DNA from: a virus
Reading direction: 5' to 3' (one strand)
Length of the DNA: 36,970 nt
UHGV virus genome: UHGV-0007927
Shown: piece by piece, positions 2,105 to 34,043 of the stretch
How the letters are laid out: every line of letters begins with the position of its first letter
Position numbering within the stretch: the stretch's first letter is position 1
Made by a program: the position numbers and the translations under genes
Notes under the pieces: generated by a model
Database searches by the model: none
What the model was told of the DNA's origin: nothing
The model's input: only the letters and a program-made list of their open reading frames with translations

Positions 2105-2378
2105 AGCGTGAGCGGTAATTACGCAGGCGCGGGTCGATATATTCAGGGAATTTGTCTATTGTCGCTTTTCGCAGCGGTCTCATTGCTGTTTCGTTTGTTC
2201 GGTCCTTCTCCTGTTTTAGCGCGAGTTGTATATCGCGTCGGTACATCCGTTCTGCTTTTGTTTCTGGTGTCAGAGCAAGAAACGCGTCGAAATTGTTTTT
2301 GATATTTTCCAGCACCTCCGCCTTGGAGCTACCGGAGCAATTGCGCGGGTCATCCGCACCATACAGAGGCGCTGGCAT
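2082..2378 (-). CDS. small basic protein in the anti-RecBCD (abc) position downstream of erf/ssb; possible Abc2-like
   Basis: 98-aa ORF with ATG start; its position immediately downstream of the Erf/SSB module matches the abc genes of P22-like phages. The homology itself is not verified. Confidence 0.35.
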
Positions 2379-2401
2379 AATGGGAGCCTTATGTTGCTAA
2401 T

Positions 2402-2785
2402 TTAGAAGGGAATTGAATCGTCGTATACAGGAGTGTTCTGCTGGTTACTACTTTGCTGCTGCGGGCCATTTCCTGAAGCTGCAAATCCAATCTTTGCATT
2501 CAGTAATTCAAGAGTGATTGATTGACCATTTTGCCCCTGATAAACATCAACCCTGATGTTTTCTCCGGTAATTTCCACAATGCCACCTTCAACAAGAACA
2601 CTACGGTAGTAATCCGCTTGCGCTCCCGGCTTGGCAAATACAACGGCGCTGTAGTTTGTCCATTCTTTCTTTTTTGTCTGGCGATCGTAATACTGAACGC
2701 CAGCACGGATGTTGAATCCGATATTTTCCACGGCCTGAAACTCTCTTGCGGGCTTGTTTAGTCTTACAGTAATCGAATGTGCCAT
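2402..2785 (-). CDS. single-stranded DNA-binding protein-like, with SSB-type acidic C-terminal tail
   Basis: 127 aa ending ...PVYDDSIPF, which resembles the conserved SSB C-terminal tip (E. coli SSB ends DDDIPF); Gln/Gly/Asn-rich linker before the tail; AAGGAG RBS; start overlaps the erf stop (TAATG). Confidence 0.6.
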   Translation of the reverse strand: MAHSITVRLNKPAREFQAVENIGFNIRAGVQYYDRQTKKKEWTNYSAVVFAKPGAQADYYRSVLVEGGIVEITGENIRVDVYQGQNGQSITLELLNAKIGFAASGNGPQQQSSNQQNTPVYDDSIPF

Positions 2786-3390
2786 TAAGCAGCAGCTCCT
2801 TCTAATTCGTCTCGTCTGATGTTGTAAACGTCCTGCGCTTTGTGCTGCTCAGGTGTGCCTTCGAGCATCTTCCACGCTTTGGCGAACGCCTGTTTAAGCT
2901 CTTCTACGGTGTTTTTCTGCATTGCTGCGTCAGTGAATGCTTTTAGAACCTGTTCAGGTGTAGGTGATGGTTTTGATTGCTTTGCTGCTGCGTTCTGCTG
3001 ATGTTTATGCTCGTCTGTATCTGCATCTTTCGCATCATCAATGCCGAACAAACCATTGAGGCAATACTTGCGTGCATAAGAGCTTGTAGCTCCCGTAACT
3101 TGTGCAGAATCCATTCCTTTCTTGCTTTCTTCCTCTCGTGCAAGAGCGGTTGCCGTATGGCTGTTTTCGCCATCGGTAATAGTTGCCGTGGCTTTCACGT
3201 AATACCGATCACCAATCAACACAACTTCATCGCTGATTGATAAAAACAGACCATTCAGTAACGGCTTAACGCCTTCAAGAATATCTTCGCAGCTTCTGTA
3301 TTTATATTTACCGAATGAGTTGTACTGATTCTTTGGCGCGTTCAGATTCTCCTGAATAGCTGCCAGTCTTGCGTAAAATTCTTTGCTCAT
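2785..3390 (-). CDS. erf: Erf-family single-strand annealing recombinase
   Basis: ORF 2785..3420 begins with TTG; the ATG at 3390 gives MSKEFYARLAAIQENLNAPKNQYNSFGKYKYRSCEDILEGVKPLL..., matching the P22 Erf N-terminus as I remember it; about 201 aa. Confidence 0.8.
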   Translation of the reverse strand: MSKEFYARLAAIQENLNAPKNQYNSFGKYKYRSCEDILEGVKPLLNGLFLSISDEVVLIGDRYYVKATATITDGENSHTATALAREEESKKGMDSAQVTGATSSYARKYCLNGLFGIDDAKDADTDEHKHQQNAAAKQSKPSPTPEQVLKAFTDAAMQKNTVEELKQAFAKAWKMLEGTPEQHKAQDVYNIRRDELEGAAA

Positions 3391-3479
3391 ATGATTGTTC
3401 TCAGAATGGACATGGACCAAGGAAATAACGCTGATTTAATACTTCGGTCTTTGCCGCATTTAAAAAGACGCGAACACCT

Positions 3480-3650
3480 TCACGATCGCCCTTCTGGCGA
3501 TACATTAACGCCTGCTGCGTGTACATGCGCCTCTGTAACTTGCTCTCCTTCACTGTGGTTGCAAGTGACATGAATATCTCCTTCGTTACCGATTAATTCT
3601 TTCATCTGACGAATGAATTCTTCGTCTGACCAGTTATCTGTAAAACTCAT
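3480..3650 (-). CDS. small hypothetical protein in the kil/arf position
   Basis: ORF 3480..3665 (GTG); more likely ATG at 3650 preceded by AGGAA; 56 aa. Sits between the cIII-like gene and erf. Confidence 0.3.
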   Translation of the reverse strand: MSFTDNWSDEEFIRQMKELIGNEGDIHVTCNHSEGEQVTEAHVHAAGVNVSPEGRS

Positions 3651-3783
3651 TTCCTGCGATACCACGGAAGGTTGATAGCTGATTTCATCGCTTTATTTGC
3701 TTCAAGCCACATTTTTGAATCACCAATAAATCTGGCTATTACTGCTTTGTTTTGTGCCGCACGAAGCATCTGGTGATTGATGG

Positions 3784-3918
3784 CTATTTCATTGCGCATA
3801 ACGCCTCCAGTTGTTTCTTTGCTGCTCTGATTAATTGTTTAACTCGGCGTGATAATTCAGATTCGTGCGGGTAGAAAGCGGACATGACGCCGCTACCCGC
3901 GAGCTGAAAGTGCATCAT
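3784..3918 (-). CDS. cIII: cIII-like regulator (FtsH inhibitor family)
   Basis: Internal start MMHFQLAGSGVMSAFYPHESELSRRVKQLIRAAKKQLEAL with GGAG 6 nt upstream; amphipathic central helix resembles lambda CIII (ESLLERITRKLRDGWKRLIDIL); position between N and the recombination genes. Confidence 0.55.
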   Translation of the reverse strand: MMHFQLAGSGVMSAFYPHESELSRRVKQLIRAAKKQLEALCAMK

Positions 3919-3983
3919 GGGTAACTCCTTATATTTGATTGCATAACGAAAACGCCTCGAATGAAGCGTTATTGGTATGCATA

Positions 3984-4008
3984 TAAAAAGGCCCTCACAC
4001 TGGAGGGC
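3984..4008 (-). terminator. intrinsic terminator (tL-like) upstream of the cIII-like gene
   Basis: Minus-strand hairpin GCCCTC-cagtgt-GAGGGC followed by CTTTTT. Confidence 0.5.
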
Positions 4009-4127
4009 AAAGAAGATTTCCAATAATCAGAACAAGTCGGCTCCTGTTTAGTTACGAGCGACATTGCTCCGTGTATTCACTCGTTGGAATGAATACACAG
4101 TGCAGTGTTTATTCTGTTGTTTATGCT

Positions 4128-4152
4128 AAAAATAAAGGCCGAATATTCGGCC
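4128..4152 (-). terminator. intrinsic terminator directly after the membrane-protein gene
   Basis: Perfect 16-bp palindrome GGCCGAATATTCGGCC followed on the minus strand by TTTATTTTT, 5 nt after the stop at 4158. Confidence 0.6.
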
Positions 4153-4157
4153 TGAAA

Positions 4158-4580
4158 TTACTTAACCAATGACGCTGCATATTCAATTAGGAATAACTTA
4201 GGTGCAAGCCAAATCTTCAACCATTCGAAATTGAAGGCAATAATTAAAACACCAATAATTGAGCCAAATATAGGAGCAAATACAGTGCATATATCGTAAT
4301 AAAACGAAGATATAAAATATCCATCACTTGGACATCCATCGAAAGACGTCCATCTCTCGCCATTATTTCTTGCCGTTCTTGCAAAACTAGGAAGTTTCAT
4401 TGCTGCAATTAAAAGCAACAACCCAGTCACTTGGAAAAGTGCGCTATGGACAAAACTCCATATTAGCAACTGATGAACAACATCAGGAATCTGTGCCTGG
4501 CTAAATGAAACAGCCGCGTCTATTCCATTGCTGGCTTTTTGCAGTAGTTCTACGAGAATCTTGTTTGCTTGTTCTTCCAT
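4158..4580 (-). CDS. two-TM membrane protein, accessory gene between N and cIII (ral/sieB position)
   Basis: 140 aa, ATG with GAGGT RBS; hydrophobic segments VHQLLIWSFVHSALFQVTGLLLLIAAM and ICTVFAPIFGSIIGVLIIAF; visibly AT-rich; own terminator downstream. Confidence 0.6.
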   Translation of the reverse strand: MEEQANKILVELLQKASNGIDAAVSFSQAQIPDVVHQLLIWSFVHSALFQVTGLLLLIAAMKLPSFARTARNNGERWTSFDGCPSDGYFISSFYYDICTVFAPIFGSIIGVLIIAFNFEWLKIWLAPKLFLIEYAASLVK

Positions 4581-4638
4581 ATATCACCTCAAATAAGTGG
4601 TTTGCTGCCTAATTTCATTTTCTGGCGACCAACACAAG

Positions 4639-5022
4639 TCATCTCGCCGTCAGTTGTTTTGATTTCCGGTATCCTGCTGCGTAAAGAGCTACATCTGGAA
4701 GACATACACCAGTTTCTGGTTGCTTATGTCCAAACTCATTCGCGAACACAATGGCCGCTCGCTCCAGATTGCGTCTGTATTCTTTCTGTTGCCAGATCAC
4801 GTCCTGTGCCATGAACTTAATTGGCTTAGCGTCTTCTATGCGCTCAGGCGTTTCGTGAGTACCTTTAGCCTGAATCTGCGCTCTGCTTAGAGTAGGGCGG
4901 TGTAATACTTCTGAACTTATTGCTTCTTCGCGGGCCAGCACGCCGTTAGCTAATGCCTTTGCCTTTAAACGCTCACGACGACGAGAACGTGAATTGCCTT
5001 TGAACTGAGTTCTGCGTGTCAT
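4639..5022 (-). CDS. N: N-like transcription antiterminator
   Basis: 127 aa; arginine-rich N-terminal motif (NSRSRRRERLKAKA); C-terminus ...VALYAAGYRKSKQLTAR resembles P22 gene-24-type N proteins; strong CAGGAGG RBS; first gene downstream of PL. Confidence 0.8.
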   Translation of the reverse strand: MTRRTQFKGNSRSRRRERLKAKALANGVLAREEAISSEVLHRPTLSRAQIQAKGTHETPERIEDAKPIKFMAQDVIWQQKEYRRNLERAAIVFANEFGHKQPETGVCLPDVALYAAGYRKSKQLTAR

Positions 5023-5187
5023 ATAGACCTCCTGATGAACTTTGGTGGTGTGGTAGGTGGGAGACCCATTTCGACCTGTTTCGGCCTACTTCAATTCGGC
5101 AATAGTCCCGCAGGCCTCGCCGCTTTACGTGCGACATATTCCCGTCCATGAACCCTTCACCACACCCCAAAGTTCACTTTGGTTATT

Positions 5188-5202
5188 GCGCTTTGTCAGC
5201 GC
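5188..5202 (-). promoter_or_regulatory. nutL boxB-like hairpin
   Basis: Minus strand reads GCGCTGACAAAGCGC, matching the P22-type boxB as I remember it; lies between PL and N. No boxA found. Confidence 0.55.
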
Positions 5203-5263
5203 CGTAGATTCATATTCGAATCGTTGTATATTCACCGCCCTGGTGAGTAGTGCGTCCTGCTGA

Positions 5264-5333
5264 TGTGTTTAGTATCACCGCCAGTGGTATTTATGTCAAC
5301 ACCGCCAGAGATAATTTATCACCGCAGATGGTT
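5264..5333 (-). promoter_or_regulatory. lambda-type PL promoter with operators OL1-OL3
   Basis: TATCACCGCCAGTGGTA (5273..5289), CAACACCGCCAGAGATA (5297..5313) and TATCACCGCAGATGGTT (5317..5333) match lambda OL1/OL2/OL3 from memory; minus-strand -35 TTGACA (5299..5294) and -10 GATACT (5276..5271). Confidence 0.85.
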
Positions 5334-5490
5334 ATCTGTATGTTTTTTATATAGATTTATTTTTTTGCAGGGGTGTGTGGCTTGGGAGGTGATCGAGAGA
5401 TCTGAATTGCGATGTTTAGTGAGTTGTATTTATTAATTTTCAAATAAATACAATTGGTTATGTGTTATTGGGTGAAGGGGATCGTGAGGC

Positions 5491-5516
5491 AAAGAAAACC
5501 CGGCGCTGAGGCCGGG
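5491..5516 (-). terminator. intrinsic terminator closing the cI-downstream cassette
   Basis: Minus-strand hairpin CCCGGCctcagcGCCGGG followed by TTTTCTTT, immediately after the stop at 5524. Confidence 0.6.
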
Positions 5517-5523
5517 TTGTGTG

Positions 5524-5775
5524 TTACTTAAGAACGAGTCCGTTTAAGGCATCAAGGATTTTGGAAACATAACTTCCAAAAATGTAGGCGCAAAATGCGA
5601 ACACGAAACTGACAACGACCGCAGATGCCTTGATGGTGATTTTTGCTGAGCTAATGCTTGTCTCAATACCTGACAGACGAGAATCTACAGATTTTATATC
5701 TGACTTTACTTCAGCGAGATCGCGCTTGATGTATTCAACATCAGACTCTAGCTTTGCAACTCTAGCCTCAAGCAT
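5524..5775 (-). CDS. small coiled-coil protein with C-terminal transmembrane anchor (rex-position cassette, gene 2)
   Basis: ORF 5524..5895; the ATG at 5775 has a strong GGAGGT RBS and gives 83 aa: MLEARVAKLESDVEYIKRDLAEVKSDIKSVDSRL... then hydrophobic ASAVVVSFVFAFCAYIFGSYV. The upstream ATG at 5895 (123 aa) has only a weak RBS. AT-rich. Confidence 0.55.
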   Translation of the reverse strand: MLEARVAKLESDVEYIKRDLAEVKSDIKSVDSRLSGIETSISSAKITIKASAVVVSFVFAFCAYIFGSYVSKILDALNGLVLK

Positions 5776-5881
5776 GTTACCTCCGCCGTTTCCTCCACCA
5801 TGCCGTGAGTATGCATCATCAGTGGAATAGTGTCCAATTGGGCGAGATATGTTTTGATTTGGACGAAGCTGAGCAACCTTG

Positions 5882-6319
5882 TTATCTAAACTCATCGCGA
5901 ACTGATCCTGTTATCTTCACGTCAAAAAACGAACTTTTTACATCAATTACTTCGCCTTTATCAGGATTAACCAGTGATGCTCTAACTTCGAATATCCCAG
6001 GCTTGATAATTTTCACCCTTGGGAAGTTAATTCTCATAGAAGTTGATACGATGGTTTCTCCATCGTTGGCTTCTGCTACCGTAAAAAACTTATGGTTGGA
6101 GTACAGTTTTGTGTCAATTGGTATCGGTATTTCTTGAGCATTGAAAACCTCAATGCCTATGGAATATTTTTTTGTAGCCTTAAGGCCGATAAAAAAAGCT
6201 CCAAATGATAGATCCACTTCATGGGAGTCTTTATCCATTTCATAGATAAGAACTGGAGTTACTGGGTTGCCTTCATCCATCGCAATCGGAATGATATAAG
6301 AAATACGTTCTTTAATCAT
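5882..6319 (-). CDS. hypothetical soluble protein (rex-position cassette, gene 1)
   Basis: 145 aa; ATG 7 nt after the cI stop; no TM segments and no motif recognised; AT-rich; does not resemble RexA (about 279 aa) or RexB (four TM helices). Confidence 0.55.
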   Translation of the reverse strand: MIKERISYIIPIAMDEGNPVTPVLIYEMDKDSHEVDLSFGAFFIGLKATKKYSIGIEVFNAQEIPIPIDTKLYSNHKFFTVAEANDGETIVSTSMRINFPRVKIIKPGIFEVRASLVNPDKGEVIDVKSSFFDVKITGSVRDEFR

Positions 6320-31611: not shown

Positions 31612-32253
31612 TCAAAGCAACGGGATTTCAAGGTAAACTGCGGTTGCCAAAATACTAACATCTTCATTTCTAACAAGAATATTAGGATACATTGGGTTTA
31701 GGGATACTAAGTTTGTCTCTATTTCACCAATGTAAACCTGCTTGAAGCTCAATATTTGCTCTTTATCCAATGATGCTATTACATAATCTTTGCTTTTAGC
31801 TTTTACTAGAGGGCTGAACGTGACAACTGATCCTCTGGGAAAGCTAATACCTGAACTTGTAGTCATAGCTTCACCTTCAATAGTCAATGCAAATGCAGAG
31901 TCACCAACATTGTATATTGCCGGATGAAATCTAGACGATGAATGTTCACCTGTGTTTAGGTAATGCATAACTTCATCTAGTTTGAGGATTGGTATTTGCT
32001 TTACCAGAACGTCAGGCATGACGTTTTTTGTTCCAGGCCCCTGACCTTCACCCAGAGCTAACCACTCAGCCGTAGTGCCTAATGCGTTGGCTAATGCCTG
32101 CAATACACGAAGCCGTGGTTTAGCCTCACCACCCTCGTATGCAGCTATTTGACGTTGAACAACACCAGCTAATTTTGACAACTGCGCCTGCGTCATACCC
32201 CTAGACTGTCTTGCCAGAGATACTCTTGATGGGAATTGATCGTCAAAATTCAT
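31612..32253 (-). CDS. repressor-like protein: N-terminal HTH (XRE type) plus C-terminal S24 LexA/CI-like domain with Ser-to-Ala at the catalytic position
   Basis: 213 aa; HTH MTQAQLSKLAGVVQRQIAAYEGGEAKP; C-domain aligns with lambda CI (AFALTIEGEAMTT vs [14 protein letters not shown]), so the nucleophile Ser is Ala; Lys retained (SFKQV vs FKKL). Confidence 0.75.
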   Translation of the reverse strand: MNFDDQFPSRVSLARQSRGMTQAQLSKLAGVVQRQIAAYEGGEAKPRLRVLQALANALGTTAEWLALGEGQGPGTKNVMPDVLVKQIPILKLDEVMHYLNTGEHSSSRFHPAIYNVGDSAFALTIEGEAMTTSSGISFPRGSVVTFSPLVKAKSKDYVIASLDKEQILSFKQVYIGEIETNLVSLNPMYPNILVRNEDVSILATAVYLEIPLL

Positions 32254-32352
32254 TAGTTCACCATAAAAAATTCATTGACTCATACTGAGTGTGAGTGAAT
32301 AATCAAACTACAAAAAGTGAGATTATGAGTTTTTCAAAAACAGGAGTGCATA

Positions 32353-32526
32353 ATGACTGAAAAGATATCTTCCATCAAGCCGCGTCAGGTTCGTTTTACA
32401 GAAAAGGTTGATTCACATATCCGCGAATCAGCAAAAAGATGCCATAGGTCAATTCAGGCAGAGATAGCTTATCGAATGGAGTTATTGATGAAACTTGAGG
32501 CAAAGGGCGATGTTGTCATCCAATAA
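32353..32526 (+). CDS. ribbon-helix-helix (Arc/Mnt-type) regulator, 57 aa, below the ORF-track cutoff
   Basis: ATG 6 nt after CAGGAG; MTEKISSIKPRQVRFTEKVDSHIRESAKRCHRSIQAEIAYRMELLMKLEAKGDVVIQ, with a beta-strand then two helices; divergent from the repressor-like gene, upstream of the antirepressor. Confidence 0.5.
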   Translation: MTEKISSIKPRQVRFTEKVDSHIRESAKRCHRSIQAEIAYRMELLMKLEAKGDVVIQ

Positions 32527-32599
32527 AAATAGTGAAGCCCGGCAGTGCGCGAACACAAACCGGGCCTCTATGTCAGTAACCGTATGCAAGGAAACTAAC

Positions 32600-33226
32600 A
32601 TGAATATTGTAGCAAAATCAGATTACAACTTCCACGGAGTTGAGTTGGTGCCCACCCGTGATATGCATGGTGTTTGGTTTACATCATCTAATATTGCATC
32701 TGCACTTAAATATGCAAATAGCCGTGCAGTAACAATGATTTATAACAAGTATAGCGATGAGTTTAGCGCCGGAATGACTCAGGTACTCGAAGTGAGTACC
32801 TCAGGAAATTATCGCAAAAAAGTGCGAGTTTTCTCACTACGCGGTGCCCACCTAATCGCGATGTTTGCTCGCACTCCGGTAGCCAAAGAGTTCCGCCGCT
32901 GGGTGCTGGATATTTTGGATCGGCAGGCAGAATGCTCACCGATTGCAAAACAGTTTACTGACGAAGAACTGGTTAATCTCTGCTACTTACAATTGTGGAT
33001 GGAGAAGAGTCAACAAATGTGCAAACACATCTACCCAGGAATGAAGCAAATTGGTTCTGAGCTTTCAGGAAGAATTTACGATATTGCATATGAGACTCGC
33101 TATATGTCAGAAGAAACCAAGAAATCACTTCTTCGTGAAATGAAGAATCTTGATACCAACAATTTTGTCGTAAAGAACGCTCAGCCAATGCTGACAAAAC
33201 TGCGCGGCGAGGAATGGATTCATTGA
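32600..33226 (+). CDS. antirepressor-like protein with BRO-N/KilA-N-type N-terminal domain
   Basis: ORF 32495..33226; the ATG at 32600 (AAGGAAA RBS) gives MNIVAKSDYNFHGVELVPTRDMHGVWFTSSNIASALKYANSRAV...KEFRRWVLDIL; the family call is by pattern only. Confidence 0.55.
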   Translation: MNIVAKSDYNFHGVELVPTRDMHGVWFTSSNIASALKYANSRAVTMIYNKYSDEFSAGMTQVLEVSTSGNYRKKVRVFSLRGAHLIAMFARTPVAKEFRRWVLDILDRQAECSPIAKQFTDEELVNLCYLQLWMEKSQQMCKHIYPGMKQIGSELSGRIYDIAYETRYMSEETKKSLLREMKNLDTNNFVVKNAQPMLTKLRGEEWIH

Positions 33227-33314
33227 TTGGTGCGCCGGACGGCGCAAAAAGAAAACCGCCAGTGTGCTGCTGGCGGCCTATGTCACACCCTTACTACCAC
33301 ATAAGGAATGCCTA

Positions 33315-34043
33315 ATGACTTTGAAGAATGTAGCAAACATCGGATCCGTTGTCACGGATAAAACCATTGACAGCCAGCGCCTTCTTGAGATGGTAAATCA
33401 GGCTCGTAGACAGTGCGGTGAGCCGGAGGTTCGTAATAACAAATTCATCGAGAAAATTGAAGATGAATTGGATGGAGAGCACTACACAAAAAGTGTAGTG
33501 CAAAAAGCGAACAAAACTTCGATGGTTATCATTGAGATGTCAATCAAGCAAGCATTGCGAGTTGCCGCTCGCGAGTCAAAAGCCGTTCGCCGCTCACTGG
33601 TAGACCAACTTGAAAGTATGCAAGAAGCGCACATTAAAAGCGGTAAATCAGCGAGTGGACTTGTTGAGTATCGTCAAGCGCGAACATTGAAAATGACGGT
33701 TGAAGCTGTTACCAATCTGTTCGATCTGATGCCAAATCTTGCGCCTGAGGCAAAGCAGACAGCGGCAGCAAGTATAATCAACCCGCTCGTTGGTTTTAAT
33801 GCAATACCTCTTCCGGCAATAGAAGAGCATTACTACTCAGCAGGGGAGGTTGCAGAGCAGCTTGGAGTAACGGCCAACAAGATTGGTCGCATTGCTAACG
33901 CAAACAACCTCAAAACTGAGCAGTACGGGAAGTTCTTCCTGGATAAATCGGCGCATTCCAGCAAACAGGTAGAGGCGTTCCGTTACAATTCTGAAGGCGT
34001 TAAAGCACTACAACACCTACTACATGGCTCAAATGTGGCGTAA
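33315..34043 (+). CDS. second antirepressor-like / phage regulatory protein (ORF6N plus KilA-C-like architecture, tentative)
   Basis: The ATG at 33315 with AAGGAA RBS gives 243 aa; C-terminal ...YYSAGEVAEQLGVTANKIGRIANANNLKTEQYGKFF... resembles antirepressor C-terminal DNA-binding modules. Confidence 0.4.
   Translation: MTLKNVANIGSVVTDKTIDSQRLLEMVNQARRQCGEPEVRNNKFIEKIEDELDGEHYTKSVVQKANKTSMVIIEMSIKQALRVAARESKAVRRSLVDQLESMQEAHIKSGKSASGLVEYRQARTLKMTVEAVTNLFDLMPNLAPEAKQTAAASIINPLVGFNAIPLPAIEEHYYSAGEVAEQLGVTANKIGRIANANNLKTEQYGKFFLDKSAHSSKQVEAFRYNSEGVKALQHLLHGSNVA

Follow-up and report, generated by a model that had tools for sequence, protein, structure and literature searches.

UHGV virus genome UHGV-0007927, a stretch of 36,970 nucleotides referred to here as the window, belongs to a P22-like lambdoid phage, and the open reading frame at positions 4158–4580 (minus strand) is a genuine accessory gene in its leftward early (PL) operon. 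The product of this gene, 140 amino acids long, is a small two-pass inner-membrane protein; its orthologs, as judged by alignment, are gene 34 of Shigella phage Sf6 and CUS-3 ECRS218_0047. Our overall account, a tentative one held with less than even confidence, is that of an immediate-early cargo gene read from PL, belonging to the Sf6 gp34 family and encoding a two-pass membrane protein in which the conserved termini are the working part and the membrane hairpin is exchangeable. The family spans ~3,400 clusters in several proteobacterial orders, occurs in temperate and virulent phages, and has neither an assigned function nor a structural analogue. Its design is unusual in that strongly constrained termini enclose a membrane hairpin that is freely swapped. 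Finding a function would provide annotation for thousands of phage genes and could make clear what lambdoid phages require at the membrane ahead of N action.

The gene, its slot, and its transcription

The right part of the window carries terminase, portal, coat, and tailspike-sized open reading frames of a P22-like lambdoid phage, and the left part is an HK97/CUS-3-like early region with lambda-type cI, cro, and PL/OL. The order on the minus strand is PL, N, a 58-nt spacer, the 140-amino acid open reading frame, a terminator hairpin, a ~125-nt conserved noncoding block, two terminator-like hairpins, and cIII; after cIII come kil, erf, a 127-amino acid gene at the position of HK97 gp40, and abc2. 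The slot is bounded by the HK97-type antiterminator gene N (4639–5022), which is on the same strand 58 nt upstream, and by cIII (3784–3918), the first delayed-early gene past the terminator cluster. An initial annotation, made from the letters of the DNA, had described an AT-rich gene here for a protein with two transmembrane helices and a good ribosome-binding site, and this description is borne out at the same coordinates. The gene runs from an ATG at 4580–4578 to a TAA at 4160–4158 and has a GC content of 38.1% (46.9% for the window). Two hydrophobic stretches are evident by Kyte-Doolittle analysis (approximately residues 37–61 and 96–118), and a Shine-Dalgarno sequence, GAGGTG, lies at 4585–4590 (minus strand), 4 nt 5′ of the ATG. 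That the open reading frame is real rather than a chance occurrence follows from its full-length match to PHROG 3054 (E = 2e-52; residues 1–140 against profile positions 1–137 of 137), the existence of hundreds of homologs, and purifying selection. PHROG 3054 itself is annotated as ‘unknown function’.

Comparison with related phages agrees with the earlier view of the gene as an accessory one in the N-to-cIII slot. HK97 has an identical N gene, 58-nt spacer, and GAGGTGA..ATATG, which are followed by the unrelated gene gp45; the mosaic joint therefore coincides exactly with the ribosome-binding site, and optional genes are exchanged in this slot. We considered whether HK97 gp45 is a diverged homolog of the 140-amino acid protein and rejected this on checking. 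In lambda, the N-to-cIII slot is occupied by ral, sieB, and ea10. A derivation of the N-gene spacer from the end of lambda sieB was considered as well and dropped, as the ‘lambda’ match was to DE3 and direct alignment with lambda gave no similarity there. Sf6 gene 34 and CUS-3 ECRS218_0047 are 96–97% identical to the window's gene in nucleotide sequence and 94–96% in amino acid sequence, and they are equal to it in length, downstream hairpin, and boundary sequence. However, the gene in Sf6 and CUS-3 comes after ral, whereas in the window it comes directly after N and is joined at the ribosome-binding site.

Morons, in the sense of Hendrix and Juhala, are optional genes with their own promoter and terminator, as exemplified by HK97 gp15 and lambda bor. 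The gene in the window resembles lambdoid morons in being present, absent, or replaced among close relatives, in its deviant GC content (38% versus 47%), and in having a terminator directly after it. Unlike these morons, it has no detected promoter of its own and relies instead on the ribosome-binding site junction of the operon and on PL.

A consensus scan found PL (TTGACA-17-GATACT, 5271–5299, minus strand), which is accompanied by lambda-type OL operators, to be the only promoter-like site upstream of the gene on its strand. When the criterion was relaxed to 8 of 12 matches or an extended −10, no sigma-70-like promoter emerged in 4560–5030; weak or unusual promoters escape a consensus scan of this kind. 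There was also no convincing terminator between PL and the gene, with one weak match inside N, Rho-dependent termination being invisible to a sequence scan. The first convincing terminator on the minus strand after PL is a hairpin just past the gene, here called T1. Because the gene has no promoter of its own and no terminator separates PL from its stop codon, it would be co-transcribed with N on an N-independent, immediate-early PL message of ~1.1 kb. This message would end at the hairpin at 4136–4153, which would serve as the tL1 of this phage, and polymerase modified by N would read through T1 and a tL2-like cluster into cIII-kil-erf. Co-transcription with N would in turn mean that the 140-amino acid protein is made at the very start of infection or induction and not in the repressed prophage. 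These sequence features make it probable that the gene is transcribed together with N early in the lytic phase and is not expressed in lysogens.

This transcriptional arrangement bears on the proposal of the initial annotation that the gene encodes a SieB-like exclusion or abortive-infection factor. SieB of lambda and P22 is an abortive-infection exclusion protein. A factor of this sort would be expressed from the prophage, and, made in lysogens, it would kill or block incoming phages. The 140-amino acid gene does encode a membrane protein in the slot in which lambda and P22 keep sieB (between N/24 and ral in those phages), and as AT-rich optional cargo with its own terminator it is moron-like. 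However, the sieB genes of lambda and P22 (184–192 amino acids) are antisense to PL and have their own promoter, whereas the gene in the window is on the PL strand with no promoter found, so that expression in a repressed lysogen is not indicated. P22 SieB differs further in being paired with an in-frame Esc protein.

Terminators and the conserved noncoding block

T1 is an intrinsic terminator (4126–4153, minus strand) that consists of a perfect 18-nt palindrome, AGGCCGAATATTCGGCCT (4136–4153), beginning 4 nt past the stop codon, followed on the minus strand by the T-tract TTATTTTTAG. A perfect 16-bp palindromic terminator had been noted immediately after the gene, and this corresponds to the core of the 18-nt palindrome. 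A 61-nt RNA across T1 has a predicted folding energy of −14.9 kcal/mol (z = −3.6, better than all 200 shuffles), and the longer stretch 3940–4160 is strongly structured (z = −7.0). A second, tL-like terminator had also been suggested further downstream, and there we found two. Terminator T2 (3981–4008, minus strand; hairpin 4008–3991) consists of GCCCTCCAGTGTGAGGGC and a T-tract and is the homolog of the tL2A annotated in Sf6, which in lambda is located between ral and ea10. The terminator-like hairpin T3 (3941–3970, minus strand; hairpin 3970–3951) lies just upstream of cIII.

T2 and its flanking ~200 nt are nearly identical to lambda, and T1 is the first terminator after N, as is tL1 in lambda. 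However, T1 is not homologous to a known lambda tL1 sequence. The ~200-nt block around T2 is nearly identical in Sf6, CUS-3, HK97, HK633, and lambda, and Sf6 labels it tL2A and ‘boundary sequence bsq4’. The lambda copy of this block lies downstream of ral, and lambda keeps the T-tract and left arm of T1, with a weak stem. As the block is shared across lambdoid phages, T1, which had been called private to the gene, sits on the edge of a shared terminator/boundary block.

The association of gene and terminator was followed through 77 related viral loci, in most of which the gene comes after N or ral. A hairpin of the form AGGCCG...CGGCCTTTATTTTT with a T-tract directly follows the gene in 58 of the 77, and an unrelated GC-hairpin terminator, CCCGCTCCGGCGGGTTTTTT, follows it in at least five others. 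Since most of these loci keep the pairing, and do so with two unrelated terminators, gene and terminator still seem to be functionally linked. The T1 stem showed no significant covariation, its sequences being too similar for that, and is mismatched in several relatives; the copy in the window is the strongest version among the relatives compared. A search of 3600–5500 against Rfam gave no match.

The noncoding stretch between T1 and T2 was conspicuous in itself. Positions 3990–4135 (~145 nt) are ~100% identical in the window, Sf6, CUS-3, HK97, HK633, and lambda, far above the flanking genes. Within this block, which is conserved to the same extent among lambdoid phages, there is a long hairpin of ~12 bp (4071–4098, minus strand), after which there is no T-run. 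The block may serve as a linker for recombination, belong to the tL2 terminator cluster, or encode a structured RNA. A separate observation concerns Sf6 (~3480–3545, compared with 4126–4153 in the window), in which the motif GGCCTTTATTTTTG occurs once after ral and again after gene 34. The gene-34 cassette thereby has the look of an insertion between two copies of a single terminator/boundary motif.

Conserved termini and an exchangeable center

The coding sequence divides into a conserved N-terminal segment (residues 1–46), a variable center comprising TM1, a loop, and TM2 (residues 47–117), and a conserved C-terminal segment (residues 118–140). Among 103 enterobacterial homologs, the mean pairwise identity of these segments is 81%, 17%, and 89%, respectively. 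The same homologs have at least 18 unrelated types of center, and the protein varies in length from ~120 to ~160 amino acids. The terminal segments of the 140-amino acid protein carry the motifs G..D..V.F...Q.PDV..QLL.W and WL.I..APK.YLIEYAA.L.K, which flank the two hydrophobic helices. A similar pattern is evident in the DNA. Between the window and HK633, the Shine-Dalgarno sequence and first 120 nt are ~100% identical, the center is unalignable, and the last ~65 nt and the terminator are similar. Such alignments indicate that the exchange of centers is a cassette-like recombination between conserved ends.

Selection within alleles follows the same division. For three alleles, pN/pS was 0.00–0.13 in the termini and 0.3–1.0 in the center, with the loop of the window's allele at 0.99. 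Synonymous divergence was no lower in the termini than elsewhere, and the constraint therefore acts on the protein. A pN/pS of at most ~1 in the center fits relaxed constraint and is no demonstration of an arms race. The residues that hardly vary even across distant phages are G19, F26, P32, V34, Q37, L38, L39, and W41 on the N-terminal side and I123, A126, P127, K128, L131, E133, Y134, A136, and L138 on the C-terminal side. The first group immediately precedes TM1 and the second immediately follows TM2, and both are on one side of the membrane. By these sequence comparisons, the selected part of the protein is its N-terminal ~46 and C-terminal ~23 residues and not the membrane hairpin, and the TM1-loop-TM2 center is weakly constrained and swapped among phages like a cassette.

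The structure predicted by AlphaFold2 from a diverse alignment (pLDDT 92.3, pTM 0.73) has one long helix (residues 2–72), one return helix (93–116), and two short C-terminal helices (119–125 and 127–139). An earlier AlphaFold run with close homologs only had a pLDDT of 73, with the termini at 45–65, and in the rerun with the diverse alignment the termini rose to ~90. The predicted secondary structure, along with the joint conservation of the termini, suggests that packing of the two termini against each other may form a helical stalk. The gain in confidence at the termini is consistent with their co-evolution as one such stalk. Under the conflict role favored below, the conserved stalk would be the working part of the protein and the hairpin an exchangeable anchor or specificity element.

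The charges of the tails and the loop bear on the topology of the protein. The N-terminal tail is acidic (1.9 K/R versus 5.8 D/E), and the first eight residues of the loop are basic (2.6 K/R). In 80 of 126 members, K/R residues are more numerous in the loop than in the two tails combined, and in 30 they are fewer. This bias leans toward an arrangement with both N- and C-termini outside, though short-loop alleles lean the opposite way.

Distribution of the family and possible roles

An exhaustive profile search identified 3,416 cluster representatives of the family (E ≤ 1e-3; clusters at 50% identity), all of 115–185 amino acids, and all 142 diverse relatives selected from the family match PHROG 3054. 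The exact 140-amino acid protein is found in 67 contigs, always under the names ‘hypothetical protein’, ‘gene 34 protein’, or ‘phage transmembrane protein’, and 60 complete E. coli genomes out of 5,426 carry the allele, UTI89, IHE3034, and APEC O18 among them. With identical copies in dozens of E. coli assemblies, and as Sf6 gene 34 already represents it, the window adds no new sequence. In HK633, a 121-amino acid member is intact at 2246–2611 (minus strand), and the record instead gives a truncated 58-amino acid HK633_044 and an overlapping HK633_045 in another frame (‘VT2-Sa p20-like’). This is probably a mis-annotation of the intact member.

As seen by tblastn against phage genomes, the family occurs in lambdoid and P22-like temperate phages and also in virulent ones, namely Justusliebigvirus, phAPEC8-like myoviruses, the N4-like Ithacavirus, many Vibrio phages, phages of Pseudomonas and Rheinheimera, and a Ralstonia jumbo phage. 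The gene in virulent phages is located among small early or middle genes. It follows the RNAP II subunits in N4-like SP-076, whereas in phage alia and a Vibrio phage it stands before a gene for an ATPase or a DUF2800 protein. A neighbor of this kind appeared in those two cases but not consistently, and no neighboring gene is conserved across the virulent phages. The Ralstonia jumbo phage RsoM2USA has three tandem paralogs (gp387, gp390, and gp392, at 2669–4403), which share their termini and differ in their centers and N-terminal extensions.

The 23 matches to plasmids are mostly in non-mobilizable replicons of ~46–48 kb, and nothing about them points to a function in the leading region of conjugative plasmids. 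The one plasmid examined, E. coli NZ_LR883007.1, is N15-like and has lambda-like head and lysis genes, which make it a phage-plasmid. Its 149-amino acid member (5001–5450) occupies a late ‘moron’ slot, flanked by the lysis cassette and the small terminase subunit. Early timing is therefore not universal for the family, and with contexts this different, the common denominator is optional cargo in variable regions and not one expression time.

The placement in N15-like phage-plasmids, directly downstream of genes for lysozyme and a lysis protein, raises the question of a lysis-timing component that resembles a holin, antiholin, or lysis-inhibition protein and modulates permeabilization of the membrane. 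The protein is suitably small and has two transmembrane helices, and a Foldseek search of BFVD with the earlier, lower-confidence model returned, apart from uncharacterized homologs, a putative holin at an E-value of 1.9, which is not significant. However, the gene in lambdoid and P22-like phages adjoins N, a long way from the lysis cassette (in the window, ~10 kb separate it from the late genes), no holin family in Pfam or PHROGs matches, and the transmembrane helices, on which holin function centers, are conserved least of all in this protein. We regard a role in lysis timing as the least probable of the four readings weighed here, and very unlikely.

Searches against known proteins gave no lead on function. 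The 140-amino acid protein has no family match in Pfam (including matches at E ≤ 1), NCBIfam, or PADLOC (E ≤ 1); Pfam scans of the 142 diverse relatives gave only scattered single matches, PHROG scans only families of unknown function or named ‘membrane protein’, and a profile search of PDB sequences only spurious helices of GPCRs. A search of the literature found nothing under the family identifiers or motif. By sequence or by fold, there is no homology to any characterized protein in the searches made, and functional readings rest wholly on context.

A search for remote homology to exclusion proteins, which the initial annotation had suggested as a check, revealed no detectable relationship: comparison by hhalign with lambda SieB, P22 SieB, P22 SieA, and T4 Imm gave a probability of 0.2% in each case. 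T4 Imm (PF14373), an early inner-membrane protein with two transmembrane helices, prevents superinfecting DNA from entering. In functional terms it offers the closest analogy to the role we propose below, being small, having two hydrophobic helices, and belonging to the early genes of a virulent phage. Unlike the 140-amino acid protein, Imm lacks long conserved terminal segments, and the 140-amino acid protein has no match to PF14373 in Pfam at E ≤ 1.

A member of the family has been included in a screen by Silas et al., in which 200 accessory genes were expressed in ECOR strains and challenged with lambda, T2–T7, and P1 (bioRxiv 10.1101/2023.04.06.535777). This member, ‘UDP0047’, is the 121-amino acid allele of Salmonella phage SPN9CC (AEW47744.1), and it was classed as accessory with two TMHMM helices and no comment (bioRxiv 10.1101/2023.04.06.535777). 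UDP0047 is not among the genes reported to have exclusion, counter-defence, or cell-death phenotypes: it is absent from the genes with a phenotype (orf7, 24, 48, 63, 92, 98, 116, 126, 143, 145, 148, and 184) and from the exclusion hits in the lab log of the screen (UDP79, UDP183, Imm, and Cor) (bioRxiv 10.1101/2023.04.06.535777). This constitutes weak negative evidence against exclusion and counter-defence, obtained with a different allele and a limited phage panel. We also considered whether orf184 of that study, the gop-beta-cII trigger from the ral region, is the gene in the window, and it is a different protein.

The SieB-like reading can be weighed with these results. The circulation of many center alleles within one host species would suit a factor that lysogens use against incoming phages. 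Set against this, and in addition to the PL strand and missing promoter, are the absence of detectable homology to either SieB or SieA, the absence of a PADLOC match, the frequency of the family in strictly virulent phages, and the lack of a reported exclusion hit for the family member screened. We consider exclusion by a lysogen-expressed protein improbable, ranking above only lysis timing, and the SieB-like part of the initial annotation is not supported. The case cautions that membrane proteins in the N-to-cIII slot are not all ‘SieB-like’.

A counter-defence or host-takeover factor is a more plausible alternative, although still an unlikely one, and we place it second. The stalk would in this case bind and neutralize, early in infection, a conserved host target at or near the inner membrane, such as a membrane-anchored defence effector, a protease, the divisome, or a transporter. 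The anti-restriction gene ral adjoins the family gene in what is a recognized accessory region, and the gene is promoter-proximal in an early operon. The conservation of the termini across phages of Escherichia, Vibrio, Pseudomonas, and Ralstonia fits a target conserved in Proteobacteria, and the family is present in virulent phages. However, neither a host-sensitizing nor a conditional-lethal phenotype was reported for the family member screened, there is no known partner and no similarity was found to known anti-defence proteins, and in the phage-plasmids examined the gene lies in the late region.

The role we rank first, as possible and still well short of probable, is a conflict function at the membrane early in lytic development, which may be an Imm-like exclusion of the DNA of secondary phages or a protection or modulation of the inner membrane. 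Favoring a role of this type are the position of the 140-amino acid gene in the same accessory region as ral, the three tandem paralogs with different centers in RsoM2USA, and the occurrence of the family in the early regions of virulent phages. A more far-reaching idea, which we offer as speculation and think rather unlikely, is that Sf6 gp34 and PHROG 3054 represent a new and very widespread class of phage membrane effector. This class would consist of an invariant, two-helix juxtamembrane stalk, formed by the two termini, on an exchangeable transmembrane hairpin and loop that set specificity, would be produced as soon as infection begins, and would have a mechanism unrelated to those of Imm, SieA, and SieB. 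Its action could be, for example, to block entry of a competitor's genome or to disarm a membrane-anchored host defence.

Two other regions of the window were noted. Directly downstream of the lambda-type cI are two overlapping open reading frames on the minus strand, at 5882–6319 (145 amino acids, PHROG 5893) and 5524–5895 (123 amino acids, PHROG 6136). The pair is at the position of lambda rexA/rexB and has no PADLOC match; the 123-amino acid protein has a coiled coil, a C-terminal transmembrane helix, and weak XhlA/hemolysin-like matches. Being in the cI (PRM) transcription unit, the pair is a better candidate than the 140-amino acid gene for a lysogen-expressed exclusion or abortive-infection function. 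The second region (31612–34043) is immI-like and located just upstream of the tailspike-sized open reading frame; it contains a repressor-like gene (31612–32253, minus strand) and two consecutive Ant-type antirepressor genes (32495–33226 and 33264–34043).
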